Shown: positions 2,055 to 18,415, counted from the first letter of the stretch. The stretch is 64,000 bases of DNA from a virus (IMGVR_UViG_3300027779_000011:1-64000); one strand, 5' to 3'. Numbers and translations are program-made. Notes: generated by a model not told the origin, from the letters alone.

Positions 2055-2147
2055 CACCGGGAGAAAAGGTTTTCAAAAACCGAGCGACCTTGGAAAGTTA
2101 GATATTTTTTTTGATCCATATACACATGGATAAGAGAGGGAGGGACA

Positions 2148-2372
2148 ATGGCAAAGCGAAAGTCATCACAGCCGGTTCAAATAAAGAGGGTGATCAATCC
2201 CCTTTCCTTCACCGTCCAGGCTCCCAAGGGTCGCGATATTTTCATGCAAGCCTTGATCGCCCGCAAGGGTGCGGGTGCTGGCGCTCATCGGGCCAAGGCT
2301 TCTCGCGGGGATGGGTGTGGGAAGGGCAAGGCCGCCCGCCATCTAAAGCACAGGGGCCGCCGGGACTGGTAA
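2148..2372 (+). CDS. Small basic protein with weakly ArfA-like C-terminus
   Basis: Motif B and SD upstream; ends GKGKAARHLKHRGRRDW. Confidence 0.55.
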   Translation: MAKRKSSQPVQIKRVINPLSFTVQAPKGRDIFMQALIARKGAGAGAHRAKASRGDGCGKGKAARHLKHRGRRDW

Positions 2373-2430
2373 GAAGAACTCAGATATTTTTTATGATCGA
2401 TATATACACATGTATCAAAAGGGGATTCAA

Positions 2431-2847
2431 ATGACCTACACTACCGACGACATTCGCATGATTCTTGACACTAACCCTGACGCTGCCATGCGCGCGGTGT
2501 GTGCAATCTTCCGAAACCAGACGGGGTATGAGAAGTCCTGCCGTGCGACCGTGAACAAGAATGGGTACGGGTTCCGTGCGAATCACGCGAAGGCCGGATC
2601 GGATATGGCTCTCTGGATGACCCGTGGAAACCACGATGGTGTCATGCGCCGCCGAGTGGGTGGGACCGTGACTTACAACGGTCGGCAAGTTAGCCGCAAG
2701 TGGCTGGCCTATGAGATTGCAGGATGGTACAAGGAGCAGTTGGCGGTGGTTGCCAATCATGGATGCTTTGGTGACACGGGGCGAGAACGTGATCGTCGCT
2801 GGTGTGATGGCGCTTCGGATGTTCAGTGTGAAGAATACTATATCTAA
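2431..2847 (+). CDS. Hypothetical phage protein
   Basis: Motif B at 2377, AGGGG SD, ATG 2431. Confidence 0.7.
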   Translation: MTYTTDDIRMILDTNPDAAMRAVCAIFRNQTGYEKSCRATVNKNGYGFRANHAKAGSDMALWMTRGNHDGVMRRRVGGTVTYNGRQVSRKWLAYEIAGWYKEQLAVVANHGCFGDTGRERDRRWCDGASDVQCEEYYI

Positions 2848-2894
2848 GATATTTTTTTGAACGCAAATACATTAGACTACAATGGGGGCTAAAA

Positions 2895-3146
2895 ATGGAC
2901 GAGCGACAGGAGATTCAGAATACTCTCGACGAAGCATGGTTCGACCTGCTCTCGGAGGGGGCCGACTCCAAGGCTGTCAGGATTGACAGTGGCAGTCGAA
3001 AGTTTGGCGCGGGGCTGGCGACGATCAACACGAATGGAAGTGTGCAGGTTGGCAAGTGTACCTTTCGAGATTCGGTTCAGGCTGCGGATTTTGTGGTCAC
3101 CGGCCACGCATGTAACTTTCTCAAGAAGGAGGATGACCCAGAATGA
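2895..3146 (+). CDS. Hypothetical protein
   Basis: Motif B at 2843, SD. Confidence 0.65.
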   Translation: MDERQEIQNTLDEAWFDLLSEGADSKAVRIDSGSRKFGAGLATINTNGSVQVGKCTFRDSVQAADFVVTGHACNFLKKEDDPE

Positions 3147-3517
3147 GCAAACGTAAAGATTGGAAAGGGACCGAGCCGGTTGTCAGATCGCCGGATGGAC
3201 ACCGCCGCAAGCGGGAGTATGATGCCATGACCCCAGAGGAAAAAAAGGTTGTCCATCGGAGGCAGTTTGTTTCTTGGTTGAAAATGTTTCAGGGTTCCGA
3301 GGCGGTCATGCACATCGACGGAAAGGCCCAGACTCACAGCCCGATGACCAAAGAGGAGGCGGATTTGCACCTCGCAGTTTTCGATGGAGAGGTAGAGGTT
3401 ACCCCAGAGATTCGTTTGCGCTTCGCACAGTATGAGGCTCTGCGATTTCCTAACTCAAAAAAATGCACAGCAAAAATGTGGAAGGCTATGGAGGCTGTGA
3501 AAGATTCCGAGAAGTAG
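3143..3517 (+). CDS. Hypothetical protein
   Basis: ATGA overlap with the upstream gene; ends before motif A. Confidence 0.65.
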   Translation: MSKRKDWKGTEPVVRSPDGHRRKREYDAMTPEEKKVVHRRQFVSWLKMFQGSEAVMHIDGKAQTHSPMTKEEADLHLAVFDGEVEVTPEIRLRFAQYEALRFPNSKKCTAKMWKAMEAVKDSEK

Positions 3518-3559
3518 GCACGGGGCCACTCCCTTCGGGAGAAAAGGTTTACAAAAAAC

Positions 3560-3718
3560 AAAAAAAAGAAGGAAGGAGCGGCCCTAACCATCTCCCTTCC
3601 AGAAACTCTCGGGCCATTAGGGTGGTTCCAAGATGCCCCGCTGTTGTCCGAGTCGCCTACCGCGCACACCCTATGGGTATTGGGAGTTGCACCCACCGAT
3701 TTCCTCAACTGCCTCCTA
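3560..3718 (-). ncRNA. Candidate structured ncRNA of about 160 nt
   Basis: Own motif B promoter (- strand, 3727-3756), several stems, terminator-like end, no credible ORF. Confidence 0.45.
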
Positions 3719-3882
3719 TGATTCTTTATATTTTGAATAAAAAATATATCTCAGTTTTTCGGGCAGCCCGCCCCCGAGAGATTTCAAATCGGGAGAAAAA
3801 GTTTTCAAAAAAGGCCCGATTGAACAAAGGTTAGATATTTTTTATGATCGCAATATACATGGGTACCAAAGGGGGGAACCAA

Positions 3883-4761
3883 ATGAGTTCTTATAGCGAC
3901 AGTATCCGCGACGAGATTACCAGTCATTTTATCGCCGCTCTTGAGAAGGGCGATATTCCCTGGCACCGTCCGTGGAACGGGGTGAACACCCTTCCTCACA
4001 ACTGGACTACTGGTAGGCAGTACCGTGGTATGTTCAACCCCATCTGTCTTATGATGGTCGAGAACGCCCGTGGATTTGGCGACTCCCGCTGGGGTGGTAA
4101 GAGTCAAGTTCTCAAGGCTGGTGGTCGCATCCTTCGCGATGAGTTTAGCAAGCCCACCAAGATCCTTGCCCCAATCCTCAAGCCCACCGGAGAGGTGGGG
4201 CCGAACGGAAAGCCAAAGCTGGAGTGCCGTGGATGGCGCGTGGTCAAGGTTTGGAACGCTGCACAGTGTGAGGGCGTCCCGGTAGTGGAGGAAGCCGAAC
4301 CTGTCGATCCATCGGTTGGATTCGAGAAGGCTTCCGCTCTCTCTGTCGCCTCTGGCGCTGACATCAAGCATGGTGGAAATGTGGCTTGCTACCGTCCGAT
4401 CGATGATAACATCAGCCTTCCAAAGCCCGGTGCCTTCAAGTCTGTCAGCCACTACTGGTCTACGCACCTTCACGAGCTTGGCCATTGGACTGGCCACCAA
4501 TCTCGATTGAGCAGGAAGGGGATTACGGCAGGTGCCATGGGTAAGACCCGCGAAACCTATGCTTTTGAGGAGTTGGTTGCGGAAATGTCCTCCGCCATGA
4601 CTTGCCACACGCTCGGCATTGACGCGCCTGAGCTTATGGAGGGCCATGAGGCTTACATCAACAACTGGATTCGCACGCTCAAGAGTGATCCGAAGGCTCT
4701 CCAGCGGGCCGGATCTCAGGCTCAGAAGGCTATGGATTATCTTCTGAAAAATGTCAAGTAA
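3883..4761 (+). CDS. ardC: ArdC-family antirestriction / ssDNA-binding protein with zincin-like domain
   Basis: LEKGDIPWHRPW, N.TTGRQYRG.FN, HELGHWTGH.SRL.R, YAFEELVAEM. Confidence 0.88.
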   Translation: MSSYSDSIRDEITSHFIAALEKGDIPWHRPWNGVNTLPHNWTTGRQYRGMFNPICLMMVENARGFGDSRWGGKSQVLKAGGRILRDEFSKPTKILAPILKPTGEVGPNGKPKLECRGWRVVKVWNAAQCEGVPVVEEAEPVDPSVGFEKASALSVASGADIKHGGNVACYRPIDDNISLPKPGAFKSVSHYWSTHLHELGHWTGHQSRLSRKGITAGAMGKTRETYAFEELVAEMSSAMTCHTLGIDAPELMEGHEAYINNWIRTLKSDPKALQRAGSQAQKAMDYLLKNVK

Positions 4762-4767
4762 AAACCG

Positions 4768-4783
4768 AGGGGCTTCGGCCCCT
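4768..4783 (+). terminator. Hairpin with UUCG loop after ardC
   Basis: AGGGGC-TTCG-GCCCCT. Confidence 0.55.
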
Positions 4784-4902
4784 GGTATTTCGCAAACCTT
4801 TTCTCCCGATTAGAATACCGACTGGGCCATGTCCATGAGACGAAGATAAGTTAGATATTTTTTATAAATAAAGTATGTTTACGCATACACAGGAGTTTTC
4901 AA

Positions 4903-5346
4903 ATGTTTGGTAAAAAGTTTTTTGAGCGTGTTGTCTGTGCCGATGGCTTCTCTGTGAGCGTGCAAGCGAGCAGTTTCAACTACTGCTCTCCGCGAACGGA
5001 TGAAGGCCCGTGGGAGAGTGTGGAGTGTGGCTTCCCCACCAAAGAAGGGGGTCCGGCTTTGGAGAAATATGCAGAAGATCCCGGTGCTGGCACTACAAGG
5101 GTCGGCCCCCATGGTGAGGATATTGAGACTGGACAGGTCCAGACGGTTTACGGCTGGGTTCCAAGTCAGGTCGTTATGCAGATCATCGAGTCGCACGGCG
5201 GGATGGTCAGTGGCGAGTTGCCAGAAATGGTGCCGGAGGAATATTCCGATCCAGAACAGGATGGGATTGACGCAACCGAGGCTGCGAAAGAAATGATGGA
5301 TGCAGCCGGAGCCTTGTTCATCATGACTGGCGGCTGGGAGGGATAA
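4903..5346 (+). CDS. Hypothetical phage protein
   Basis: Motif B at 4848, AGGAG SD; CADGFSVSVQAS..YCSPR. Confidence 0.7.
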   Translation: MFGKKFFERVVCADGFSVSVQASSFNYCSPRTDEGPWESVECGFPTKEGGPALEKYAEDPGAGTTRVGPHGEDIETGQVQTVYGWVPSQVVMQIIESHGGMVSGELPEMVPEEYSDPEQDGIDATEAAKEMMDAAGALFIMTGGWEG

Positions 5347-5349
5347 AAA

Positions 5350-5484
5350 ATGTTTGAACTTATAGAACCCTTGCTGTGGATGGCTGCTTGCTGGGCTTGC
5401 GGCATCCTTACGGGCCTTGGACTTGGGACGGCCATTACCTTGCAGCGATTGGCTCGCAGCAAGGCCAACGAAGCCTCGATTTGA
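5350..5484 (+). CDS. Small membrane protein (44 aa, not in ORF track)
   Basis: GGAGG SD; MFELIEPLLWMAACWACGILTGLGLGTAITLQR. Confidence 0.55.
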   Translation: MFELIEPLLWMAACWACGILTGLGLGTAITLQRLARSKANEASI

Positions 5485-5595
5485 TTCGGGGCTTCGGCTC
5501 TTCCATTTTTGTAAACTTTTTCTCCCCATCGAGCGTATAATATAAAGTTGGATACTTTTTTATTCCGAAGTATAAAGGAATGAAGGGAGGATAAT

Positions 5596-6228
5596 ATGAA
5601 GATTCTACACTCATCGGACCTCCACAGCCACTACGAAGGGCTGTCCTCCTTCTCAGATTTTGATCTATGGATTGACACTGGAGATTTTTTCCCAAACAAA
5701 ACTCGCGGCGACCGAGAGGTGGAGGTAGGGTTTCAAAAGGAGTGGGCTGGATCGAACAATCTTGGAGAGCTTCTGGCAAAGTGGCTTGACGGTCGCCCAC
5801 TGGTTTCTATCGGTGGAAATCACGATTATACCTCGCTGGCCAATCTTGTTAGAGAATCTGGAGGGGAGGCGTTCGATCTTTCCGAAGGTCCGGTCGAGAT
5901 TGCTGGCATGACTTTTGCAGGGTTTAGAGAAATCCCTTGGATTTTTGGAGAATGGAATGGAGAAACCCACGATCTATCCAATCTGGTTCGTAATGCTATT
6001 GGGGCTGATCCTGATATACTTGTCACTCACGCTCCTCCCGCTGGGATCTTGGATACTCGACAATATCGAGGTGGTATCGAAGGCCTTACTATGGCTCTGA
6101 ACTATCAGCCCCATCGAATCAAGTACCATTTTTTCGGTCATATCCATGGAAATGGCGGGAAAGCTGTGGACGAAATGGGCATCAAGTTTGTCAATGGAGC
6201 AAACCACATTAGGCTTTGGGGCATTTAG
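5596..6228 (+). CDS. Calcineurin-like metallophosphoesterase
   Basis: SDLH, GD, GGNHD, THAPP and FGHIH motifs. Confidence 0.9.
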   Translation: MKILHSSDLHSHYEGLSSFSDFDLWIDTGDFFPNKTRGDREVEVGFQKEWAGSNNLGELLAKWLDGRPLVSIGGNHDYTSLANLVRESGGEAFDLSEGPVEIAGMTFAGFREIPWIFGEWNGETHDLSNLVRNAIGADPDILVTHAPPAGILDTRQYRGGIEGLTMALNYQPHRIKYHFFGHIHGNGGKAVDEMGIKFVNGANHIRLWGI

Positions 6229-6274
6229 CCCCGCCCTTTCGGGAGAAAAAGTTTGCAAAAAAAGCAAAGCAGAA

Positions 6275-6512
6275 AAACCCCTCCCCGTTTGGGGAGAGGG
6301 GCAGCGGGGAAACGATGAGTTCGGTTAGCGCAGCTTGTGTGCAAAACAGGATCGGAATAGATTGCTATTTGAGAAGTGAGTAGTTCGCGACCTACCAAAT
6401 CTCGTTACATCCCTCGGCCTCTTAGTTTGCCTTGCCATCTTACTTTCATCGTTTCCCCGCTGGGAGCTTTTCTTAGAAGCCTAACCAGCTGGGTTTGTTT
6501 CCTCCTTGCTCT
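6275..6512 (-). ncRNA. Candidate rod-shaped ncRNA (about 235-nt transcript, 161-nt domain closed by a 17-bp stem)
   Basis: Motif B at 6519-6551 (-); perfect inverted repeat 6302-6318/6446-6462; terminator 6273-6301; no sizeable ORF. Confidence 0.55.
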
Positions 6513-6682
6513 AACCCTATATACTTTAGTTATAAAAAATATCTTAGTTTTCACCAGGTCGCTGACGGCGACAGCCAGGCCCATCCAATCGGGAGAAAAG
6601 GTTTACAAAAAGAACTGAAGGTGAGAAAAGTTAGATATTTTTTATAATCACAATATAAAGAGGTATCAAAAGGAGAATCAGA

Positions 6683-7150
6683 ATGAACAATCTTTCCGCA
6701 ATCAACGCCCTCGCTCTTTCCATCGCTGGCAAGCAAGGTGCAAAGTCCAGTCGCCCCGATGCTGGTGATTATCACGTTGGCTTTGAAGTCAGTTTTGATG
6801 ATGGGCAGTTTCTTCGGGTCAATGGCCCCGTTCGTCAGGGCGAGGATTACGATCAGGCCGTTTGGCAGAGCGTCCCGTGGCAGATGATTGCCGCCGTGCT
6901 ATTCAGCAAGACCAATGGGGTTACGATGGAGGCTGTAATGCGCGAGTCTTTGGAGTTGGTGGCGGGGGGCAAGCTCCCCGGCTATGTTGCGAACCCCGAC
7001 GATATTGACGAGGAAACGAAGCGTCCCAAGGTGATGCGGATCAAGGATGCTGCTTCTTTGGCAGTCAAGGCACTGACCGAGCAGACCACCAAGCCCTTCA
7101 AGGGTAAGGCTACCAACGGGCTGGTCTACTCTGGTCCTCGGGAGGGATGA
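6683..7150 (+). CDS. Hypothetical protein
   Basis: Motifs A and B plus AGGAG SD. Confidence 0.75.
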   Translation: MNNLSAINALALSIAGKQGAKSSRPDAGDYHVGFEVSFDDGQFLRVNGPVRQGEDYDQAVWQSVPWQMIAAVLFSKTNGVTMEAVMRESLELVAGGKLPGYVANPDDIDEETKRPKVMRIKDAASLAVKALTEQTTKPFKGKATNGLVYSGPREG

Positions 7151-7257
7151 GGGATAAATCGCACCACGTGCGACCGATGACAGGCCGGGGGAAAAATAGC
7201 CTGTCACCCTACCCTTATTTCGCCAACCTTTTCTCCCCACCTATTTATGGAGTATCC

Positions 7258-7479
7258 ATGTATAAAGCATCTACACTGATCGGAACCAAAGCCAAGAATC
7301 ACGCTCGCACGCCAACTCAGTTGTGGGGTATGGGCCTTAGCCCCGAGGAGGTCGAGCGTGTGTTCATAGTTGAGGTGTGGGGTTCTGGCATTATGGATCC
7401 CGGTCCTGATTTTACTGAGCATCGTGCGCTCGACAACAGTGGCTCCATTATTGCCACTCACCAAATGGATGGGTATTGA
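7258..7479 (+). CDS. Hypothetical protein
   Basis: GGAG SD before ATG 7258. Confidence 0.6.
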   Translation: MYKASTLIGTKAKNHARTPTQLWGMGLSPEEVERVFIVEVWGSGIMDPGPDFTEHRALDNSGSIIATHQMDGY

Positions 7480-7547
7480 TTCTTGATTCGCCATGAAATA
7501 TTAGATATTTTTTTTGATTCAAATATGTATACGTACAAGAGGGATGA

Positions 7548-7754
7548 ATGGACGGAGATAGCCAACAACAGAAGATGACCGATCTTATCATTTTCATCGG
7601 AATGGGGCTTGCGATTGGGTTCGCGTGGTTCAAGGTATATGCCGAGCCGAGAGAACAGTTTATTGTGCAGGTTATGGACTGCATGGCTGAGAATGGCGAT
7701 ATTCACTCAGAACTTATGTATGAAAACTGCGCGAAAGAAGTGCGAGGCAAATGA
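7548..7754 (+). CDS. Small membrane protein
   Basis: Motif B at 7498; one hydrophobic segment. Confidence 0.6.
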   Translation: MDGDSQQQKMTDLIIFIGMGLAIGFAWFKVYAEPREQFIVQVMDCMAENGDIHSELMYENCAKEVRGK

Positions 7755-7884
7755 ATGTTTGGAATAAGATTCGGATATGCGTATGATCGATCAAGAACTC
7801 AAGATATTATTGAGAGAATGAAGAAAAGAAACAAAGATCAGCGAGAGCTTGAAAAGAATGAAAAGAAAGAAAAGCAACCAGTAA

Positions 7885-7961
7885 TGGGGTGAGGCGTCAC
7901 AGGCAGACGCACTCGGCTGTTACCCGAGATGTTGTTGGTTCGAGTCCAACCGCCCCAGCCA
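7885..7961 (+). tRNA. tRNA-Asn(GTT), atypical D-arm
   Basis: TGGGGTG/CGCCCCA acceptor stem, CTCGG-CTGTTAC-CCGAG anticodon arm, GTTCGAGT T-loop, encoded CCA. Confidence 0.8.
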
Positions 7962-8080
7962 TATAGGAGGTTTAGCATGACCTGGAACCGATTTTTGAAA
8001 ACGAAACTTGTGGAACGACAGTACACTAACAGGCAAGTGCTTGTGATTGCTTGTGTGGCACTGGCATTGGGAGCTATTTC

Positions 8081-8302
8081 ATGTTGAGAGGAACTGAACT
8101 ATATAGCAATACCGTTCGCTCTGTTGGGGAACTTATTGTGAGTGGATTCTGGTATAGTGATGCGTGTGAAGCCATGTGGGTCATTCTTGGACTGACAGGG
8201 GAATCAGCGCCAGATGTCTGGTGGGACTTGTTTGAGCTTGACGTAAACGCATATACAGATGGTAGAAAAGTATCTATCCCGAAATATAAGACTATCTTTT
8301 AG
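8081..8302 (+). CDS. Hypothetical protein
   Basis: GGAG SD; ends just before motif A at 8309. Confidence 0.55.
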   Translation: MLRGTELYSNTVRSVGELIVSGFWYSDACEAMWVILGLTGESAPDVWWDLFELDVNAYTDGRKVSIPKYKTIF

Positions 8303-8342
8303 TCTTACCGGGAGAAAAAGTTTACAAAACACATATGTGCGC

Positions 8343-8522
8343 TCATAAGTAAGCACCGTTTCTGCGATGCCACACTCTTTCTCGCTCACATTCCACTCGA
8401 CACTCTTTTGCGTCTTCATAGATTTCGGCCAAGCCTTTATCGCTGGGGTATGGGTTTTGAATCCCCTCAAATCCCGCATCCCATGCTTTTTCTTCTTCTT
8501 TGGTAACAATATAGAGCCTCAT
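8343..8522 (-). CDS. Hypothetical protein (59 aa, not in ORF track)
   Basis: ATGA-coupled to 8519-8731; MRLYIVTKEEEKAWDAGFEG. Confidence 0.6.
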   Translation of the reverse strand: MRLYIVTKEEEKAWDAGFEGIQNPYPSDKGLAEIYEDAKECRVECERERVWHRRNGAYL

Positions 8523-8731
8523 TTTAGGCGCCTACAAACCAACTCTTGATGAATAACCCCGTCAATAGCCCCCTTCATAACGGTCTGGAGATCACGAAGA
8601 TCGACGGGTCCATCCAGTTCTGCTTCTTTTATGGCAAATCGAACTACATCAGAAAATGAGTTACAAATAGCACTCGCATCATCAGTCCACTCTGAGTCGC
8701 CACTGGGCCGACGAATAAAAAGCTGAGTCAT
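8519..8731 (-). CDS. Hypothetical protein
   Basis: Reverse motif B at 8757, AAGGAGG SD. Confidence 0.7.
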   Translation of the reverse strand: MTQLFIRRPSGDSEWTDDASAICNSFSDVVRFAIKEAELDGPVDLRDLQTVMKGAIDGVIHQELVCRRLK

Positions 8732-8904
8732 ATAATCATCCCTCCTTACAAGTTCTTATATTACGATTATAAAAAATATCTCGCCTTTTGCTCCTGAGTC
8801 CGGGCGCCGCTGAACCGGGAGAAAAAGTTTGCAAAAAGGTCCATCATTTCAAAACTCAGATATTTTTTATAATCGCAATATAATGAGGTATAAGAAAGGA
8901 GAAT

Positions 8905-9123
8905 ATGATGAAAGATTCTGGATTTGCACTTAGGTTGATTGTTTCAACTTCACTTGGGGAAGTAGTAGAGGGCATCTTGATGCTCCAGTCAAAGAGGGAT
9001 TCCGGTCGGGCTTCGATGGCTGAAACATTTCAGTTACTTCAATGGGAAGATGATTTGGATTATGTAATGAACAATCTTGAGGGAGATGCCGTCCCCGATC
9101 CTCGATTGGTAGGGAGGGCGTAA
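8905..9123 (+). CDS. Hypothetical protein
   Basis: Motifs A and B plus AAGGAG SD. Confidence 0.65.
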   Translation: MMKDSGFALRLIVSTSLGEVVEGILMLQSKRDSGRASMAETFQLLQWEDDLDYVMNNLEGDAVPDPRLVGRA

Positions 9124-9311
9124 TGATTGAAAATCTCATAACTAAGCTACTTGATGATGATCATGGAATAAACGAAGATGCTTTTCTTGAGTTGGTGAAA
9201 TATCTTGAACATATTGGAGCAGCGAATATGATCGATAAGCTCAATAAGAAAGTCGAAGCCTCTGATGGGAGGTTCTATTACCCCTTGCCAAACTTTTTTG
9301 GAGATGAATAA
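9123..9311 (+). CDS. Hypothetical protein
   Basis: Translationally coupled operon. Confidence 0.6.
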   Translation: MIENLITKLLDDDHGINEDAFLELVKYLEHIGAANMIDKLNKKVEASDGRFYYPLPNFFGDE

Positions 9312-9568
9312 TGCAACGCCACCAAACCGAAAACTTTAGAGCCGATGGAGATAGCAAGCACCCCAATGGGCCGTACCTTGTGTTTGGCGACGGTTCAACC
9401 TACGCCGGAATAGAGGGGGCTGTTGTCTGCTATATTAGTGAAAATGGCGAGGAAGAACTTGATTCGATAAACGACTTCAAGGCCGTTAGTGAGGAAAGCG
9501 CGATGTACGTGTCCGTACACGAACTTCTAAACTGCTGGGCTATTGTGCATCAAGAGGGCAAAAGATGA
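9311..9568 (+). CDS. Hypothetical protein
   Basis: Translationally coupled operon. Confidence 0.6.
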   Translation: MQRHQTENFRADGDSKHPNGPYLVFGDGSTYAGIEGAVVCYISENGEEELDSINDFKAVSEESAMYVSVHELLNCWAIVHQEGKR

Positions 9569-9795: not shown

Positions 9796-9817
9796 ATGAC
9801 AAATGGGAGGAGTGGTA

Positions 9818-10722: not shown

Positions 10723-10784
10723 ATAAGTCCCCTGACCTTGGGTAAGTCAAAAAACTGCCCATTTTTTACACACAGGAGATTTGT

Positions 10785-10973: not shown

Positions 10974-11059
10974 AGTGTGTGTACAGGCGCAGGGAGGCAC
11001 GGCCTTATAGGTGCCTCAACAGTTATAAGAAAGGGTCCGATACACTTTAGGGGTGATTA

Positions 11060-11332
11060 GTGAATGTAGGCGACTTAGTAAGGCTAACAGGCCATCGGTG
11101 TCATGGGATTCATGGAGGGAGCAAGACGGTGGAGGGTACGATTATTGATATCTCCCCTCATACCGAAACCTATGCATCTTCTGGATGCTTAGAGTATTTA
11201 GTTCTAACCCCCACCGGCCTGAAACACCGATGCTGGAAAGGTGACTTGATTGTTGTTAGAAAAGTCTCGGAACATGGAAGCTGGCATAAACTGTGCGGCA
11301 CTCCAGTGATGCATCCGCCCCAAAAAAATTAG
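11060..11332 (+). CDS. Hypothetical SH3/KOW-like small protein
   Basis: MNVGDLV N-terminus, beta-rich pattern. Confidence 0.5.
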   Translation: MNVGDLVRLTGHRCHGIHGGSKTVEGTIIDISPHTETYASSGCLEYLVLTPTGLKHRCWKGDLIVVRKVSEHGSWHKLCGTPVMHPPQKN

Positions 11333-11470
11333 TGGATTTTACTCGACATTCTTCAGCGGAGGGGGCAGGCGAAAGTCGCCCCCTCGGGAGAAAAAGCTTA
11401 CAAAACACAAGAAAGTAAAAGTTAGATATTTTTTATAACCAAAGTATATAGAGGTGTAAGGGGGCTTAGA

Positions 11471-11878
11471 ATGAAAGATTACTACTCTACCGAAGAACTC
11501 ATGCTCCGTACGATCATAGATATTTCGCGTGACAATGCCCTTCAGGAAGTAGATATTCTCGCTCTTGAAGAACGTGTGCGCACACTGACTGAGGCAGAAA
11601 GTTCAGATCATGTTCAGAATCTTGAGCGCAAACTAAGGGCCATTCAGCAGTCTTTTGAATCCATCCTGGTCAACCCTGATCGCAAGATCCCCATGATCAA
11701 GATGTATCGGGCTATTTTCAACTCTGGGCTAAAAGACTCCAAGCACGCTATCGAGAGGTCTGAGCTATGGAATAGGTGCAAGGTCGCTAAAATCAGCGTG
11801 GTGGGTGTGCAGAATAGTTCTCCACCCGAGGGCATCGCAGAGATATTGCCGTCGTGGTTCGATGGGGAGGAGACTTGA
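11471..11878 (+). CDS. Coiled-coil protein with ribosomal L7/L12 C-terminal-like domain
   Basis: KIPMIKMYRAIFNSGLKDSKHAIE resembles bL12 KIxVIKxVRxxTGLGLKEAKxxVE. Confidence 0.6.
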   Translation: MKDYYSTEELMLRTIIDISRDNALQEVDILALEERVRTLTEAESSDHVQNLERKLRAIQQSFESILVNPDRKIPMIKMYRAIFNSGLKDSKHAIERSELWNRCKVAKISVVGVQNSSPPEGIAEILPSWFDGEET

Positions 11879-12106
11879 TATGAAAGTATGTCCAAAGGAT
11901 GCAAGATGCGGCACTGAGGCGTCATAATAATATCGTTCCTGCCTTTGCCTTGGCGTCGACGGACAGAAGGGCATCGAATACTGGACGACCGCTGGCAGAG
12001 CGGGGGGAAAATACTCTGCCTTTCTTCCCCCCCGGGAGAAAAAGTTTGCAAAATTTGTGCACGCAAGGGCGCGACCTACCTTGGTTGGCGGGCCGCGCTC
12101 CTAATA

Positions 12107-12271
12107 CTATCTCCCGATACGGTCACGGATCTTCGCCCTAAGCCCACAAGCCTTGTCAGAATCGGTGGGCAAACGGTCCAGAAAGGCCATTAGCTCCGCG
12201 TCTCCCGCAGACTTGTTTCTTAGAGCAGACCGAACCTCAAGGAATAAGATTCTACGATCTTGACATTCCAT
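12107..12271 (-). CDS. Hypothetical protein (54 aa, not in ORF track)
   Basis: Reverse motif B at 12343, AGGAGG SD, MECQDRRILFLEVRSALR. Confidence 0.65.
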   Translation of the reverse strand: MECQDRRILFLEVRSALRNKSAGDAELMAFLDRLPTDSDKACGLRAKIRDRIGR

Positions 12272-12507
12272 TGGCACCTCCTGCTAAAAGTGTATCGAGA
12301 GGATGATTTGTGATAAGGAACCCTCATCACCTCTCGCCCTTTTATATTTTGATTCAAAAAAATATCTAAGTTTTGCCTTGCCTCTCCCGAGGATCTCAAA
12401 TCTTTCGATCTTTTGGGAGAAAAAGTTTACATAATATAATAAATATATTTCATTTGAAAATAGCAAGGGCAGTTTTCATCTCTTGCCCAGGAGCTTTCAT
12501 TATAGCT

Positions 12508-12918
12508 TTATGAAAGGGTTTCACCTGCCGCTTCAACTGAATCAACAGTGGCGGAAAGAAGGCTGGAAACCTCACCGAACTCATCGGCATTTAGCTTGGC
12601 GGGCTTGGAGCCTTTACCAGACTTGATTCTGAAGCTAATAACTTCGTCCTCAAGGGAGATGGTTTGATGAACCATTTGAGCGGGAGAAAGGTTCTCATCA
12701 GATGCAGTCTCACTGATACCGTTTTCGGCGTAATGAGATACAGCACTAACGTAATCAGCAAAATCGCTAACTGCCATTACTTGAGATCCTGTACCCTTCC
12801 CCTTATTGGTAGCAAAAGAAACCATCGGGATGCCGTCATCAGATAGAAAGACCTTCATGGTTTCCTTTACAATCTGAACAGCGGAGAGTTCAACTTCGTC
12901 ATTGAAGATGTTGGCCAT
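12508..12918 (-). CDS. Hypothetical protein, paralog 2 of 3
   Basis: MANIFNDE..VSFATNKGKG; AGGAG SD; reverse motif B at 12973. Confidence 0.85.
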   Translation of the reverse strand: MANIFNDEVELSAVQIVKETMKVFLSDDGIPMVSFATNKGKGTGSQVMAVSDFADYVSAVSHYAENGISETASDENLSPAQMVHQTISLEDEVISFRIKSGKGSKPAKLNADEFGEVSSLLSATVDSVEAAGETLS

Positions 12919-13163
12919 TTTATTAGCTCCTATCAATCTTGTCTTTCGGCACCATGCCTTCTGACATACACATATATATGCGTTATAAAAAATATCTAAG
13001 TTTTGCACTACTTGGATCTCGTGAGCATCTCCCGCCACTAATCGGGAGAAAAGGTTTATAAAGTTTATTATTGTGGCATTTGATACTATAATGATATTTT
13101 GTCTATGTATAGTATATAACGGTGTGAGAACGAGATACCAGCCTAATGACAGGGAGAGTACCA

Positions 13164-13427
13164 ATGATTGAAGTAGAGTATGAAGGTAACACTTATGGAT
13201 TTTGTAAAAGAACCAATGATACCTATTGGATTGGAATAAGAGGAAGTAGAAACGTCATGTTTCCCGGTCCCTATTGTGCCGTTCCATTGTCTTTTTATAA
13301 AGAACTTCATAGGAAGGCTTTGGAGGATGGACATGAGGAATCTATCTTTAGAAACCCGAAGAAGCAAAAGAAGGTTCGCTCTGCACGAGTTAGGGCTAAG
13401 AAAGAAGTTGGAATCAAAATTTTTTAA
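13164..13427 (+). CDS. Hypothetical protein, paralog of 53319-53558
   Basis: MIEV.Y.G.TY..AVP.S.Y..L..IKIF shared. Confidence 0.7.
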   Translation: MIEVEYEGNTYGFCKRTNDTYWIGIRGSRNVMFPGPYCAVPLSFYKELHRKALEDGHEESIFRNPKKQKKVRSARVRAKKEVGIKIF

Positions 13428-13440
13428 TCAGGAGTTTGTA

Positions 13441-13671
13441 ATGTCTATTGGCCGAAAAGAAATGAATGATGCAATCCAGAAGTTCATTAGTGAAGGTGGA
13501 GAGATCGTTCAGATGAAGTATGCTAACGAGAAGGTGCAAAACAAATCTCATCGTAAATCATATCATATTTTGAGACAGGATGATAACCCCCGATCTAAAG
13601 AATATCTTGAGCGAGAGGATAAGAAGGAATCTCAGCTTGTTTTCTCAAAAGATGATCGGATGCGTCAATAA
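13441..13671 (+). CDS. SutA RNAP-binding-domain-like protein
   Basis: AIQKFISEGGEIVQM resembles the SutA xxEEFLxRGGKVQxI motif; AGGAG SD. Confidence 0.5.
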   Translation: MSIGRKEMNDAIQKFISEGGEIVQMKYANEKVQNKSHRKSYHILRQDDNPRSKEYLEREDKKESQLVFSKDDRMRQ

Positions 13672-13929
13672 AAAAGATAGCTTTGCCCCCCCGCAGCGGG
13701 GGGGATGGAGTATGTGTGCGTACACATATAAGTTAAATATATTTTTTCTATTTGAATTATTCAATGCTAACAGAGTAAGATTATGATTGTTACATTGGTT
13801 GCGGGATTTCTTGCAGGAGTTGGAGTTTGCGATTTTTCAAGGAATAAGAAGTTTTCAGGAACGTGCATGTGTGTGCTTTCTGTCTTGCTTATTTTTTCAT
13901 CTATCGGAATTTTTTAATTAGGAAATAAA

Positions 13930-14118
13930 ATGGATACAGAAACTAAGAGTGATGTTACTATGCAAAGGTCTAATAGGCGATTTAACCCCTACAGGGTAAC
14001 CATTATGGTGACTAATAATCAAACTGGCGCTGTGTTCACGCACAGAGGCTTGACCAGACATGAGGCTGAGTGGATCGACCTCGATCCAAACCTAACTGTA
14101 GAGTATTTGAAACACTAA
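13930..14118 (+). CDS. Hypothetical protein
   Basis: ORF with AGGA SD. Confidence 0.55.
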   Translation: MDTETKSDVTMQRSNRRFNPYRVTIMVTNNQTGAVFTHRGLTRHEAEWIDLDPNLTVEYLKH

Positions 14119-14136
14119 GAACCTTTAGGAAAATGA

Positions 14137-14212
14137 GGGTCCATAGCTCAACTGGTAGAGCATCGGACTTTTAATCCGCAGGTTCTGGGTTCGAGTCCCA
14201 GTGGACCCACCA
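14137..14212 (+). tRNA. tRNA-Lys(TTT)
   Basis: Canonical cloverleaf, CTTTTAA loop, CCA. Confidence 0.93.
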
Positions 14213-14227
14213 TTTTCTCAACTTTGA

Positions 14228-14305
14228 AGGCCCATAGCTCAATCAGGTTAGAGCATCGCTCTCATAAAGCGCAGGTTCTCGGTTCAAGTCCGAGTGGGCC
14301 TACCA
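14228..14305 (+). tRNA. tRNA-Ile2(CAT) (lysidine type; elongator Met not excluded)
   Basis: AGGCCCA/TGGGCCT acceptor stem, GGTTAGAGC D-arm, CTCATAA loop, CCA. Confidence 0.8.
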
Positions 14306-14323
14306 TTTATTTAGGATTTAATT

Positions 14324-14524
14324 ATGGATAGTTCAGTGAAGAATTACTGGCCGAGTACACAGCTATGTATGGAGTGTGAGCATAGCATATCTGTAATGGG
14401 TGATGACGAGCCTACATACGTGTGTTCAGTTGGCGTAAAACTTGGACCTTGCGAATCCAAGTGCGAGGAGCAATCTGAAATTGTCGAGGAATCCCCATTG
14501 GGAGATGACCCTATTCACTGGTAA
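14324..14524 (+). CDS. Small Cys-rich protein
   Basis: CxxCxH and further Cys; ends before motif A. Confidence 0.55.
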   Translation: MDSSVKNYWPSTQLCMECEHSISVMGDDEPTYVCSVGVKLGPCESKCEEQSEIVEESPLGDDPIHW

Positions 14525-14635
14525 ACGCCCTCCCTTTCGGGAGAAAAAGTTTACAAAATATTTTGCAATCCATAGTTAAATTATTAGATATTTTTTTTAA
14601 TCAGAATATATCTTCGTATCAGGAGGTAGTCTGCT

Positions 14636-14920
14636 ATGAATAGAGTTAGGGCAATTAGAGAAGATGCTATTGTTGGTATCGGAAGCTGTTCATCTATTGA
14701 TGAGTGCTTAACAAATATTGAAGTTCGTGATCTTCTTGATGAAGATAACATCACAACTTCCTATGAAGCTGTGAAATGGGCAAGGGATAGAGAGCTTTTT
14801 TATCTTGAAAATGCTATGAACTATCGCCGGGGTGGTGATGATGATCCCCAGCTTAGCGATTACCATTCTTTTGAGAAGCTAATAAAAGAAAACCCAATCT
14901 CTTTAATTACAAAGCTCTAA
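14636..14920 (+). CDS. Hypothetical protein
   Basis: Motifs A and B plus AGGAGG SD. Confidence 0.7.
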   Translation: MNRVRAIREDAIVGIGSCSSIDECLTNIEVRDLLDEDNITTSYEAVKWARDRELFYLENAMNYRRGGDDDPQLSDYHSFEKLIKENPISLITKL

Positions 14921-15258
14921 AGGAATTAAGAACTATGGTCTGGACCGCTATCCTTTCTAATGGAATAAACACTACTTCAGAATATATCATGACGGATACC
15001 CCCTGTCATGAAAAGGCGGTAGCAGCCTTTTATAACGTCAGGGTTGAAAACGGTATGTTTCTTGTTGCGATAATTAAAGGACGACATGAAGTTTATGTTT
15101 AATCTTTTAAAGAATGAGTTTAAGTTTGTAAAGAATAGGATGTATATGCTTGGTCTAAACAAGTGGCATCTTCTCTCAATCTTATCTCTTGAAATCATTG
15201 GATGGACTCTTATTTTTATTCTTGGCTATAAAGCCTACAACTGTTGTTAGGAAATATC

Positions 15259-15549
15259 ATGACAAATAAAAATGTAATTAACGCTTGGGTAGATGGCCGT
15301 ATAGCCAGTAGTTGCAACGGCAACATGTCTACAAACGGTGTAGATCTCTATTCATATAATCTAAAGATTGCTTCAAGGCAGGACCATCAGTTCAGGATTT
15401 GGGACTATACAGCAAGCGGTCATTATTACTCTCAGACTACCTCATGTCATGTGAGTTTGGCGCTAAGAATGTTGGACGGAAGTTTCTTTCTTATGCAGCC
15501 AAACACTGACGGTTCTCCTGATGACTATTATAAAAATCTATCTGCTTGA
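15259..15549 (+). CDS. Hypothetical phage protein
   Basis: LYSY..YSQTTSCH motif; SD. Confidence 0.6.
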   Translation: MTNKNVINAWVDGRIASSCNGNMSTNGVDLYSYNLKIASRQDHQFRIWDYTASGHYYSQTTSCHVSLALRMLDGSFFLMQPNTDGSPDDYYKNLSA

Positions 15550-15577
15550 TATTCAATCTAAAAAAAGAGAGTAAAAG

Positions 15578-15913
15578 ATGCTCACTCGTAGACAATTCTT
15601 TGCACGTATGCGCAAATTAGGTTTCTCCAAATCACGTATGCAGATGACTCGCATTGGCTTAACATACGTGAGGGATGACGAAAATGGGCGTGTTACCGTG
15701 ACGGTTCCCAAGTATCATGAGTCAACCTTTACCATCTTGGGAGATACGCCAAATAGCGGCATCTTTGTTAAGGACATCGGAAAGGAAACTAACTGGGGAA
15801 TTCCCGTTAATCCTAATTCAATTGGCCTGAATAATATGCTGGAGGTATGCCTTGGGCTTTGCTCTGGTGATGTTCACATGACGGCTCCTGATTATGAACG
15901 ATATGAGGGGTAA
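15578..15913 (+). CDS. Hypothetical protein, weak HicA-like pattern
   Basis: LGF..VTVTVP.H pattern. Confidence 0.5.
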   Translation: MLTRRQFFARMRKLGFSKSRMQMTRIGLTYVRDDENGRVTVTVPKYHESTFTILGDTPNSGIFVKDIGKETNWGIPVNPNSIGLNNMLEVCLGLCSGDVHMTAPDYERYEG

Positions 15914-15917
15914 TGAC

Positions 15918-16190
15918 ATGTACCGAATCGGAAGCATCATCGAGTATCAAACATTCACAGGCGCTGCTCGCATTGTTCTTGTGGAGGAAAAGGATGATGA
16001 CATAAAGAATGGCCGGGCAGGTTTTGGCGGAATACTTGAGCCAAGCCATATGAAAAATGCCGAACTCCGCGCCGAACGACCGGGCATTTCTAAGCTGGAA
16101 AACCGCCCCCGAAAGTTCGAGAACGGAGTGGCGGAAGGGGCGGGAGTCTGGGGCTACGATAGTCAGATTACTAAAGTATTAAAGTACTAA
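15918..16190 (+). CDS. Hypothetical protein
   Basis: GAGGGG SD. Confidence 0.55.
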   Translation: MYRIGSIIEYQTFTGAARIVLVEEKDDDIKNGRAGFGGILEPSHMKNAELRAERPGISKLENRPRKFENGVAEGAGVWGYDSQITKVLKY

Positions 16191-16200
16191 AGAGGATTCT

Positions 16201-16455
16201 GTGAAAATAGCAATAACTGAATTTGCCGCTGGCCACCACTTTGGAAATCCAGATGGAAAGGGGATAGAATTGGAGTATGTACACTTGACACACGAACAAC
16301 TACACATTATACTAAGGGCGCTCGATATCTTTTCGACAGATATGCACAGTGCAGCCACCGTTACTGGCAGCGAAGAAGCTCTCAGGGAGGCTGAAATCGC
16401 AGACGCGCTCATGGATGAACTCGACTCATACCTTGAGGGGCCAGAAGATGAGTAA
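16201..16455 (+). CDS. Hypothetical protein
   Basis: GAGG SD, GTG start. Confidence 0.55.
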   Translation: MKIAITEFAAGHHFGNPDGKGIELEYVHLTHEQLHIILRALDIFSTDMHSAATVTGSEEALREAEIADALMDELDSYLEGPEDE

Positions 16456-16636
16456 TAAACTAAAGCTAAGGCTGACCCAGGATCAGGCAAATTTAATATT
16501 GCTTGGTCTTGATGAAATTATTTCAAAAGAAGAACACGGGTCAGAAAGAATTGAGGTTGCAGATAGCATACGGAACGCCCTTTGCAGAGAACAAGATGTG
16601 ATAATAAAAAAGATTCTTGATAAAATGAATTATTAA
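16448..16636 (+). CDS. Hypothetical protein
   Basis: Overlaps the upstream stop; L.LT..Q...IL..LD similar to the previous ORF. Confidence 0.55.
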   Translation: MSNKLKLRLTQDQANLILLGLDEIISKEEHGSERIEVADSIRNALCREQDVIIKKILDKMNY

Positions 16637-17024
16637 CGGTAAAATACCCCACTCGACTAACAGCCCGTGTACATATGTACATGGGTTATTTATTTATAAT
16701 TTAATTAAAAAGGATTAAAAAATGTTTGAAGCTATTATTTTTATTACCACTATTGGTTCACTCTGGACAGCCTGCTTTGTTGGCATGGTTGTCGCACTTT
16801 ATAATGACTAGGTATTTATAATGTACAAAAAGCGTAAAATGACCAAAGAGCCTATGGTAATTCACCTTGAGAACGCTCCAGATGATATAACTGGTGAAAT
16901 TGTAAAAACTCTGAAGGAACTAAAGGATGACTATGATCTTGAAACTGAAGAAGTTGAAAAGACTATGAATAAAAATTACTTTAAAAAGCTTATTGGTAGA
17001 TGCTTTAGGGAGTAATCAGGGATT

Positions 17025-17207
17025 ATGAAGAGAAAAAGTTTACAAAATTTAATGTGGCCTATAATTTGGATTACACTATTTATTTTAATAGGTTGTCCGA
17101 AACAGAACAAGCCAGAAGAACCTGTGCCAAGAACTTATGAGGGTTTGGATAATCTTAATGAGGAAGTCTTTCCAGAAGACAGTGGGTTTTTGGAAGATGG
17201 CTTATAA
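17025..17207 (+). CDS. Small putative lipoprotein
   Basis: Basic N-terminus, hydrophobic stretch, LIGC lipobox. Confidence 0.5.
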   Translation: MKRKSLQNLMWPIIWITLFILIGCPKQNKPEEPVPRTYEGLDNLNEEVFPEDSGFLEDGL

Positions 17208-17602
17208 TAACTAAAGCTCTTCAGAGTTCCGGTCCCTTGGTTTGTCCTCTCGTGGGAACTCTGGATCTAAAGAATTCCGAGTCCTTAGTCTTGATCTCCT
17301 GGGGACTGGGAACTCCTAAGACAATATACTTAGTGATATTATATATATCATAAGCCCTAACCCACCCAGGAGAAATGACATTGCAACCGCTGCGTATACT
17401 ATGTCTTTAATAGCAATTCCTTTCCACCATAACCAATGTTTTATTTTCTTTATTATCTTCATGGCTTAATGATACCAATGTTGTCTCTTAAAACCAAGAG
17501 ATGAGCTCCTTCATCTAATCCAATTGGGAGAAAAAGTTTACATAATTTTAATGAAAAAAGACTCCAAGGGGATTTCCCAAGGAGCCTTTCTTTAGTGGTT
17601 AA

Positions 17603-18046
17603 TTACTCGTCACTATCACCTTCATTAGATGTTCCAGTGAGTCGTTCACCCGCTGCTTCAACAGCATCTACAGTGGAGCCGAGAAGCTCTGCAACTTCGG
17701 CCAAGTCACCGTGACCTACCTTGGCTGGCTTCGCTCCCTTACCAGAGCGAACTCGGAAAGAAACAATGCCGTCATCATCCATAGAGATAGTCTGATGAAC
17801 AGTCTCGGCGGGAGAAAGATTATCCTGAGTAGGAATATCATCAATACCGTTCTTAGCGTAATGCGAGACAGCTTCGACATAATCACCGAACTGAACAACG
17901 CTCATAACTTGCGCTCCAGAACCCTTACCGCGATTAGTAGCGAAAGAAACCATGGCGGTTCCATCGTCAGCAGCAAAGACCTTCATGGTTTCCTTAATGG
18001 TTTGAATAGCAGACTCGTTCTTTTCGTTTTCAAAAATGTTAGCCAT
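17603..18046 (-). CDS. Hypothetical protein, paralog 3 of 3
   Basis: Near-identical to 10279-10722; reverse motif B at 18101. Confidence 0.85.
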   Translation of the reverse strand: MANIFENEKNESAIQTIKETMKVFAADDGTAMVSFATNRGKGSGAQVMSVVQFGDYVEAVSHYAKNGIDDIPTQDNLSPAETVHQTISMDDDGIVSFRVRSGKGAKPAKVGHGDLAEVAELLGSTVDAVEAAGERLTGTSNEGDSDE

Positions 18047-18415
18047 TTTTTATCTTCCTTTTTTGTGGTTAGTGTGGAGGCTCGCCGCCTCACACCTTAA
18101 TATATTTCGGTTATAAAAAATATCTGAGTTTTGCGTATAATAATGGCAGGGCGAACATCGGGAGAAAAAGTTTATACAAACGTCTTTCGCTCATTATTAT
18201 CTTATTAAATATATCATTAGATGAACCTTTATGTTTTATTTAATGTTTGTCTAAAACTAATTTAGAGTTTATTTAATAGTATCAAAAAGATAACATCTAT
18301 AATAGATAAACTATCTATAGTAACGTAAAGAAATCAATACATCGAACATTGTTAGGTCAATGTGAATTGTAATATTATTTTTTTCATCCAGTATAACATC
18401 GGAGGTAATCAAAGC

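Follow-up and report, generated by a model that had tools for sequence, protein, structure and literature searches.

A one-directional intergenic word at the early-unit boundaries of an uncultured marine jumbo phage: a seam for unit exchange and a putative protein-binding site

Motif A, (a)TCGGGAGAAAARGTTTDCAAAA, is a non-palindromic, one-directional word of 22-23 bp and the one sequence common to almost all boundaries between the early transcription units of an uncultured marine jumbo phage, where it serves as a seam for unit exchange between related phages. We tentatively read it as an asymmetric protein-binding boundary or upstream site tied to early promoters, doubling as a homology seam in a variant of the PeSL arrangement; this reading is quite possible, though short of probable. 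The analysis centres on a 64,000-nucleotide stretch (the window) of a viral record of 158,716 bp. Phages keep fast-evolving host-takeover and anti-defence genes in hyperplastic early regions, and the shuffling of such genes is documented mainly for T4-type phages. Here a different type of seam is used by an unrelated, uncultured marine jumbo-phage clade: a single high-information word, neither promoter nor terminator, that holds one polarity and is phased with promoters. The reader of motif A, once found, would provide a handle on the early-gene control of this clade and a defined engineering site, and would test whether one element couples regulation and modular exchange.

Distribution of motif A

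A window scan allowing up to three mismatches returned 20 matches, with coordinates exactly as first given, against a chance expectation of ~0.02 from shuffles. All 19 copies listed in a first-pass annotation (16 plus, 3 minus) are among them: 18 are solid and intergenic within 2058-18179, 15 on the plus strand and three inverted (4788, 5507, 7218), and the copy at 17027 is degenerate (Table 1). A motif A-like match at 21460, with three mismatches and inside ORF 21186-22193, probably reflects chance. The annotation had left genome-wide occurrence to be settled. Within the record, motif A is confined to the island but for one copy in the other 140 kb, a good match at genome position 90580 (+) that also stands 5' of a B-like site. 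Our genome-wide statements are limited to this record, a fragment that CheckV puts at ~47% completeness; the phage itself measures at least 288 kb. A 288-kb scaffold of the same phage supplies the 8.8 kb that precede the window, and these contain neither motif A nor promoter B. Exact motif A is absent from IMG/VR, and the phage collection gave no nucleotide match. A genome-collection scan found only single scattered matches in unrelated taxa, and thus no sign of a host using the motif.

The island (1163-18179, ~17 kb) consists of small genes, nearly all without a Pfam or PHROG match, whose content varies among relatives; it is here that this uncultured marine jumbo phage keeps small orphan genes for host takeover. 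The units that comprise only an ncRNA matched no Rfam family, and a fold search with the conserved neighbour 13164-13427 gave no usable match. It had been proposed that motif A is a polar site for the entry, translocation or protection of first-injected DNA. This idea draws solely on constant polarity and confinement to the early island, but the island is internal both in the 288-kb scaffold and in the 223-316-kb contigs of relatives, which leaves the proposal without support; moreover, promoters point both ways and motif A is phased with them. We regard it as highly improbable.

Table 1. Copies of motif A and motif-B promoters in the window
Feature	Position	Strand	Context
Motif A	2058..2078	+	After hairpin that follows gene 1216-2028; 19 bp upstream of B(+) 2098; tandem junction
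Motif A	3536..3556	+	Convergent junction: ends of 3143-3517 and minus-strand ncRNA unit; no B nearby
Motif A	3790..3810	+	Between divergent B(-) 3753 and B(+) 3831 (gap 20)
Motif A, inverted	4788..4808	-	After ardC terminator hairpin; 42 bp upstream of B(+) 4851; unit-swap crossover point in L065
Motif A, inverted	5507..5527	-	20 bp upstream of B(+) variant 5548
Motif A	6240..6260	+	Convergent junction: ends of phosphoesterase gene and minus-strand ncRNA unit; no B nearby
Motif A	6590..6610	+	Between divergent B(-) 6546 (gap 43) and B(+) 6631 (gap 20)
Motif A, inverted, more degenerate	7218..7238	-	After hairpin of gene 6683-7150; homology with relatives stops here
Motif A	8309..8329	+	Convergent junction: ends of 8081-8302 and minus-strand genes 8343-8731; no B nearby
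Motif A	8816..8836	+	Between divergent B(-) 8783 (gap 32) and B(+) 8856 (gap 19)
Motif A	10094..10114	+	Tandem junction; 19 bp upstream of B(+) 10134; two copies 36 bp apart in relatives
Motif A	11385..11405	+	Tandem junction; after GNRA hairpin; 16 bp upstream of B(+) 11422
Motif A	12033..12053	+	Convergent junction, before minus-strand ncRNA unit; no B nearby
Motif A variant (TGGGAG...CATAA)	12414..12434	+	Between two minus-strand units; 44 bp upstream of B(-) 12369
Motif A	13043..13063	+	Divergent; 43 bp upstream of B(-) 12999; adjoins different promoter-like site for 13164-13671
Motif A	14538..14558	+	Tandem junction; 25 bp upstream of B(+) 14584
Motif A-like, degenerate (3 mismatches)	17027..17047	+	Overlaps start of ORF 17025-17207; kept in relatives
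Motif A variant	17525..17545	+	After terminator of minus-strand paralog gene 17603-18046; no B nearby
Motif A, last copy	18159..18179	+	31 bp upstream of B(-) 18127; island right edge
Motif-B promoters, ~21 (TTAGATATTTTTTAT..TATAnn)	span 1163..18127	both	
Motif-B promoters	1163, 2098, 2380, 2845, 3831, 4851, 5548, 6631	+	
Motif-B promoters	7501, 8856, 10134, 10209, 11422, 13733, 14584	+	
Motif-B promoters	3753, 6546, 8783, 12369, 12999, 18127	-	

Boundaries and polarity

By our count, 18 of ~25 unit boundaries bear one motif A, including all five divergent and four of the five convergent junctions. The classes of context recognised earlier hold: copies lie between tandem units (2058, 10094, 11385, 14538), between divergent promoters (3790, 6590, 8816, 13043) and at unit 3' ends with no motif B nearby (3536, 6240, 8309, 12033, 17525). 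The earlier statement that polarity does not follow local transcription was also borne out, and across the clade. All six minus-strand units are flanked by plus-oriented copies, each of the three inverted copies lies between plus-strand units, and polarity is independent of transcription direction in L119 and L133 as well.

Every minus-strand unit and most plus-strand units have motif A at their 3' end, as would suit a stoperator-type roadblock, insulator or terminator at which a bound protein halts read-through. Asymmetric, dispersed sites of a monomeric repressor with two DNA-binding domains are known from Cluster A mycobacteriophages (L5 gp71 type; PMC9283540), and these stoperators resemble motif A in being short, asymmetric and present in many copies in promoters and short intergenic spaces. 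They are, however, 13 bp long, spread over the whole genome of a temperate phage and oriented with transcription (PMC9283540), whereas motif A is 22 bp long, occupies one island and would be met by a polymerase from either end about equally (9 versus 8 junctions, our count). Most units, moreover, already have a hairpin before motif A. The early proteins, with hardly any family matches, offered no candidate for a cognate monomeric two-domain repressor. A roadblock role seems quite unlikely.

Hairpins frequently precede the motif, at distances of 0 to 35 nt. This variability, together with the half of the copies that face the wrong way, led us to reject motif A as a terminator U-tract. A hairpin formed with GGGAG itself seems no general feature, being present at a minority of copies only: an upstream CTCCC with which GGGAG could pair is seen in 18 of 90 contexts (4.9 expected), and most copies lack it.

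Conservation and the sister motif

Across 90 non-redundant contexts, 17 positions of motif A approach 2 bits and the flanks fall to near 0. The motif carries more than 30 bits in total, with GGGAG and the C of TTTACA invariant; the 60 nt downstream hold ~0 information, and no -10 is conserved at any fixed distance. Direct reading reveals no self-complementarity, dyad or folded-hairpin character, confirming the motif as non-palindromic, and the flanks hold no conserved partner.

Among 22 related metagenome contigs, motif A retains its place, strand and sequence. Overall identity between orthologous copies is 87% (17-20 of 20 positions where the alignment is clean); it is 68-77% in the flanking 50 nt and 82% farther out, where the sequence is mostly coding. 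Their differences fall almost only at the tolerated positions 10 and 15-17, so the copies are not simply homogenised. Copies at convergent junctions are as conserved as the remainder, and in L016 motif A is unchanged next to a diverged promoter B. This pattern points to purifying selection on motif A that is specific to its own sequence.

A sister motif, GGGCAA-N4-TT(T/G)ACA, is present clade-wide in distant relatives, in dozens of copies whose polarity matches that of motif A and is kept around minus-strand units too. Immediately upstream of promoters it builds tandem arrays of ~34 bp in which the spacers are unrelated. Between clades the left half-site changes (GGGAG or GGGCAA), and the hexamer TTGACA or TTTACA is found in all of them. 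A sigma-54 reading was discarded: among forms of the sister motif, the TTTGCA variants alone match GG-N10-GC, motif A of the window is one base longer, and TGGCAC-N5-TTGC sites show no enrichment in the window (8 versus 4.2 expected).

Spacing to promoter B

Seven of 19 motif A copies form an A+B composite, and only the composite contains promoter B; six B promoters lack motif A. Co-oriented pairs are separated by 19-21 bp in 25 of 34 cases, and inverted pairs fall into gap classes of 12, 20-22, 31-33 and 41-44 bp, with orthologous sites switching between classes. The distances have a periodicity peak at 10.5 bp (R 0.65, p ~3e-4; p ~0.03 on unique values), a statistic that includes partly non-independent orthologous sites and one site (3790) that is off-phase. 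The first-pass annotation had held motif A to be separable from the promoter. This is correct in that copies without B exist, but the two are not independent, their distances being fixed or helically stepped. Its view that motif A is not simply an upstream promoter element stands: the motif is no constant part of the promoter, and B is missing at five copies. These five, at unit ends and convergent junctions with no promoter within 70 nt, are equally conserved, and a purely promoter-directed role therefore leaves them unexplained.

UP elements, phased A-tracts and class I activator sites lie upstream of sigma-70 promoters and depend on helical phase. Motif A shares their upstream location, A-tract content and phase dependence, and might be an UP-like or curved-DNA element read by the alpha or sigma subunit of host RNA polymerase with no dedicated factor: two phased A-tracts plus a -35-like TTTACA, conserved since early promoters must be very strong. 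Its 3' half, AAAAAGTTTACAAAA, is A/T-rich with A-tracts ~10.5 nt apart on direct reading, the hexamer recurs in all clades, and the distances to B are phased largely independently of orientation. Nevertheless, the information content is far above that of known UP elements, with invariant G/C positions; the left half-site changes between clades; and some motif A copies have no nearby promoter and six B promoters have no motif A. We consider such an element rather unlikely. As to position, a fixed upstream gap of 19-21 bp is confined to co-oriented pairs, other copies being stepped by ~10.5 bp or lacking a promoter.

Candidate readers

Under the preferred reading of a bound boundary site, a sequence-specific factor would recognise two half-sites, GGGAG and TTTACA, separated by roughly one turn of the helix. 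The left half-site is not the same in all phage clades, which favours a factor encoded by the phage. From an upstream position in helical phase, such a factor would act on the sigma-70-type early promoters on either side, and it may also insulate adjacent units from one another.

No T7-like or multisubunit phage RNA polymerase that might read motif A was found in the record. A sigma factor is encoded at genome 105310-106137 and was rejected as the reader, as motif A lacks promoter-like geometry. The IHF consensus, compared by eye, fits motif A poorly; an HU/IHF-family gene is present, but proteins of this family rarely read sites of such information content.

The island also encodes three paralogs, possibly PUR/Whirly-like, that could bind the purine-rich single strand of motif A (GGGAGAAAAAG), which would explain the strand polarity. 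Their predicted structure (model pLDDT 78.7) has two beta-beta-beta-alpha repeats and acidic tails, with Pur-alpha repeat I-II as top fold match in two independent searches (Foldseek E 8.6e-3; VIA Z 6.8, rmsd 3.6 over 112 residues), and Pur-alpha is known to bind single strands rich in purines and to unwind duplex DNA (bioRxiv 10.1101/2023.03.30.534946). These fold scores are below the safe level, however, and a shared arrangement alone could produce them; the paralogs have no Pfam or PDB sequence match. The family occurs together with an A-family motif in 11 of 11 related contigs retrieved via the protein. This co-occurrence is tied to relatedness, and conservation extends to other early genes as well. 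The sister motif, in addition, has a C within the purine run. Binding by these paralogs is, in our estimate, of low probability.

Unit exchange

In T4-type phages, PeSL (promoter-early stem-loop) cassettes are bounded by a repeat made of a promoter plus a stem-loop that follows gene direction, and homologous recombination has been proposed for their exchange between relatives (PMC2839356, PMC4122927). The stem-loop acts as a terminator or attenuator, and mini-circles that form through recombination between the repeats are a further trait of PeSLs. The island resembles them in its repeated intergenic regulatory motifs, its hyperplastic set of small orphan early genes and the indels and replacements between relatives that are bounded by repeats (junctions in A(-), B or the composite). 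It differs in that the most conserved repeat, motif A, is neither promoter nor hairpin, contains by itself no sigma-70-like early promoter, and holds a single polarity along the chromosome irrespective of gene direction. Nor is the phage T4-like, its terminase being ~25% identical to siphophage terminases.

Comparison with relatives shows exchange at motif A. In L065 and L032 the ardC unit and the 6683 unit have exchanged positions, with one junction exactly inside A(-), and two independent gene replacements end 9 nt upstream of the copy at 14538. Ends of homology blocks fall within 15 nt of motif A in 14 of 63 clusters, compared with 4.6% of random positions (~5-fold enrichment) and 4 of 101 gene boundaries. 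The remaining 49 of 63 lie away from the motif. Further junctions of exchange were located in B or within the B(-)-A-B(+) composite, many replaced segments have a single end at motif A, and several gene gains or losses occurred inside operons that lack it. Six contigs that are 99.9-100% identical are collinear, so no recent cassette event was caught. The proposal of a crossover site for cassette shuffling thus survives in part: A-bounded units are exchangeable and breaks do fall in motif A, but they also fall in B and within operons, and a dedicated crossover site is not upheld. Nor did the rest of the record supply the enzyme that such a system would use, as searches with PF00589 and PF00239 found no tyrosine or serine recombinase, and no integrase or resolvase was found, in the 158.7 kb of this ~47% complete record; RecA is encoded there.

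In integrons, IntI acts on attC sites, imperfect palindromes that recombine in the form of folded single strands; the cassettes mostly lack promoters of their own and are expressed from a common one. As in attC arrays, each unit here has one polar site and cargo functions are unrelated. Motif A could be the core site of a dedicated integron-like system whose recombinase moves circles of A plus cargo at a fixed position. One motif per boundary, clade-wide polarity that is constant whatever the cargo orientation, the exact junction inside A(-) and the conservation of promoter-less copies would all fit, and a recombinase could lie in the other part of the genome. In contrast to integrons, motif A has no dyad, the 158.7 kb yielded no integrase, and units carry their own B promoters on either strand. 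Many events have one end at motif A or ends in B, the sister motif's tandem arrays, in which spacers are unrelated, are more in keeping with binding than with crossover, and A-B phasing is left unexplained. We find such a system decidedly improbable.

A bolder synthesis would see in this marine jumbo-phage clade a cassette platform that works without an integrase and has the A family (GGGAG/GGGCAA ... TTTACA) as its polar address. Recognition of one strand, for instance by the three PUR/Whirly-like proteins, would both insulate early units and direct the insertion and excision of promoter-bearing cassettes in a single orientation. We hold this to be unlikely.

In our preferred reading of a bound site that doubles as a homology seam, units would be exchanged by ordinary homologous recombination with the phage's own RecA and no dedicated recombinase, and constant polarity would be a by-product of units entering and leaving via direct A repeats. 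In the modular theory of phage evolution of Susskind and Botstein, short conserved linkers between modules provide the homology needed for exchange; unlike these, motif A is a single defined word at ~18 boundaries, and selection acts on its sequence specifically. Consistent with a seam, the cargo that follows gene 3143 differs among the window, L011 and L016.

Motif A within the early island

The pattern proposed in the first-pass annotation, a polar word repeated at the boundaries of transcription units, is real: a scan of the window for motif A at up to three mismatches returned 20 places against 0.02 expected. Eighteen are solid intergenic copies spanning 2058 to 18179, three of them inverted (4788, 5507, and 7218), accompanied by one degenerate copy; the match at 21460 is probably due to chance. 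The contexts described for the copies hold on reading the sequence and mapping motif B, the sigma-70-type early promoter, with exactly one A at about 18 of 25 unit boundaries (divergent junctions, 5/5; convergent junctions, 4/5).

The 158,716-bp IMG/VR record, whose first 64 kb form the window, has a CheckV completeness of 47%, and the same phage (99.9–100% identity) is contained within a 288-kb scaffold. No close cultured relative of this jumbo phage was found. In that scaffold, both A and B are absent from the 8.8 kb that precede the window on its left, and the rest of the record holds a single further A, at genome position 90580, with a B-like site beginning six bases after it; the two motifs thus mark a bounded island of ~17 kb. 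The island has raised G+C, and its genes are small orphans except for an ArdC-like anti-restriction gene and a metallophosphoesterase. For the three A-bounded units that lack a convincing ORF (table), no Rfam family matched even at E values up to 1.

Coordinates of features in the island (window positions)
Feature	Position	Strand	Remark
Paralog of acidic 136–147-residue protein	10279–10722	+	62–80% identical among the three
Paralog of acidic 136–147-residue protein	12508–12918	-	62–80% identical among the three
Paralog of acidic 136–147-residue protein	17603–18046	-	62–80% identical among the three
Degenerate A copy	17027		start of an ORF
A-bounded unit, own B promoter and terminator	3560–3750	-	no convincing ORF
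A-bounded unit, own B promoter and terminator	6275–6512	-	no convincing ORF
A-bounded unit, own B promoter and terminator	12060–12340	-	no convincing ORF

The only A outside the island (L108, part of the same record, 6579–6640; genome 90579–90640), with its B-like TAGATATGTTTATTATGG 6 nt on, precedes a 400-bp AT-rich gap, after which genes resume; a gene of the HU/IHF family is found 1.8 kb downstream (L108 8414–8701). Assembly breaks fall in or beside the island in several assemblies, both of this phage and of the records behind the related contigs L114/L116, L115, L119, and L122. Window 16198–16223 is the common end point of two contigs and one scaffold gap, which points to micro-diversity or repeats at this site. 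One Phycisphaerae MAG was deposited with a 69-kb contig from the clade in it (L133, NZAS01000011.1); either the contig was mis-binned or the MAG hints at the host.

Conservation of A in close relatives

A metagenome contig scan found many marine contigs with 2–10 copies of A each, 22 of which are 70–88% identical to the island, and gene and motif maps of the close relatives show the boundaries and strand of A unchanged. Across 90 non-redundant contexts, the element reads (a)TC GGGAGAAAARGTTTDCAAAA and has sharp limits: GAGAAAA is invariant (90/90), and the flanks carry ~0 bits. Orthologous copies are 87% identical overall, with 17–20 of 20 positions shared where they align cleanly, and their 50-nt flanks are less identical (68% and 77%), rising to 82% further out. 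Where orthologs differ, it is nearly always at positions 10 and 15–17, which tolerate variation, a pattern that points to purifying selection acting on the individual copies and not to homogenisation among them. Copies without an adjacent promoter show the same pattern equally. In L016, one of the related contigs, a diverged B (AAGATATACTTTCT...) stands with an unchanged A (1150–2260), and an additional small gene separates A from the homolog of the 6683 unit.

Spacing between A and promoter B

Of 34 distinct contexts with co-oriented pairs, 25 have a gap of 19–21 bp between A and B. When the two are oppositely oriented, the gaps group at 12, 20–22, 31–33, and 41–44 bp, and orthologous sites switch between the 31–33 and 41–44 bp classes among relatives. 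The distances have a periodicity peak at 10.5 bp (R 0.65, p ~3e-4; p ~0.03 with unique values only), a statistic in which sites are partly non-independent and one site (3790) is off-phase. A is therefore no fixed part of B, in line with the earlier view that it is not simply an upstream promoter element, but it keeps a constant helix face relative to B. An upstream activator, an operator, or a bend would behave in this way.

Sister motif and clade-wide polarity

With the triplicated island protein as query, we recovered IMG/VR contigs, the longest 316 kb, whose proteins are 52–65% identical to it. These distant relatives lack A and carry instead dozens of copies of a sister motif, GGGCAA-N4-TT(T/G)ACA, placed singly at boundaries, in ~34-bp tandem arrays with unrelated spacers, or as inverted pairs. 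Its strand bias is conserved (14:2, 20:6, 33:12, 19:9, 12:1, and 7:0), and minus-strand genes are flanked by plus-oriented copies, as for A in the window. The polarity seen at first reading is thus a clade-wide property untied to local transcription.

In the distant contig L120, a TTGATC-N17-TATATG promoter lies 7 nt downstream of the last sister-motif copy. The same contig has, upstream of a single promoter, five tandem copies at 33–35 bp whose spacers are unrelated (3785–3941), and elsewhere an 18-bp perfect stem formed by two inverted copies (9394–9442). In another distant relative, L114, near-perfect sigma-54-type sequences (TTGGCACG-N4-TTGCA; 3058–5330 and 13035–13200) lie downstream of sister-motif copies at a distance of a few tens of bases; the window itself shows no enrichment of these sites.

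Unit exchange and breakpoints

In the related contigs L065 and L032, the ardC and 6683 units have swapped positions. One junction lies exactly within an inverted A, where homology to window 7150–7237 stops and homology from 4794 onward starts; the remaining junctions lie inside B and inside a 155-bp composite of A between divergent promoters. What follows gene 3143 varies: an ncRNA unit in the window, nothing in L011, and in L016 an unrelated unit with a minus-strand ORF. Upstream of 14538, two independent replacements both end 9 nt before A. The expectation that breakpoints in relatives would fall at A is borne out in part: of 63 clusters of homology-block ends, 14 fall no more than 15 nt from A, against 4.6% for random positions and 4/101 for gene boundaries, while the other 49 clusters lie elsewhere.

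The suggestion that A is the crossover site of a dedicated shuffling system is not supported. Several gains and losses occurred inside operons without A (9565, 15918, and 4903 in L064), and many of the replaced segments meet A at one end alone, with the second end, for example, at a tRNA gene. Together with the clusters away from A, these events fit homologous exchange that takes any available conserved sequence as its anchor, and they do not fit a dedicated site-specific system. The search beyond the window found neither a tyrosine or serine recombinase nor a phage RNA polymerase in the 158,716-bp record (47% complete by CheckV), which encodes RecA, an SbcC-like subunit, a sigma factor, and an HU-family protein. 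A also lacks the defining features of attC sites.

The nearest known system is PeSL, the promoter-early stem-loop cassettes of T4-type phages, which A resembles in its module-shuffling role. Unlike PeSL, A stands apart from both promoter and hairpin and is polar along the chromosome, making it a different kind of element. Stoperators are likewise asymmetric, dispersed sites, but A lacks their defining link to transcription direction.

Proposed role and candidate reader

We propose that A is a binding site, with a sequence-specific factor reading two half-sites one turn apart. Bound there, the factor would mark early-unit boundaries and act on adjacent promoters, possibly as an activator or insulator. 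Secondarily, A may supply RecA-type exchange with a portable stretch of homology; units entering and leaving by recombination between direct A repeats could account for its constant polarity. Rival readings, each less likely, take A for a roadblock, a DNA-entry site, a strand-specific element, an integron-like site of recombination, or an UP-like or curved element that needs no factor.

The three paralogs are a tentative candidate for the reader. Each contains two internal repeats and ends in an acidic C-terminal tail, and the fold model (pLDDT 78.7) found Pur-alpha repeat I-II as its best match in two independent searches, with Whirly-like proteins ranking lower, at scores insufficient to establish the fold. 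Marine metagenomes hold at least 860 members of the family, none annotated and none with a Pfam domain.

Two T-variant copies of A (TTGGGAG...CATAA; 12413–12440 and 17524–17552) create promoter-like sites, TTGGGA-N16-TATAAT / TTTAAT, directed antisense into paralog genes. Small basic proteins are encoded at 13441–13671 and 18362–18640, the former with a weak match, below the cut-off, to the SutA RNA-polymerase-binding domain (E 0.0014). The gene pair 13164–13427 / 13441–13671 adjoins a divergent paralog gene and a copy of A, an arrangement kept in distant relatives.
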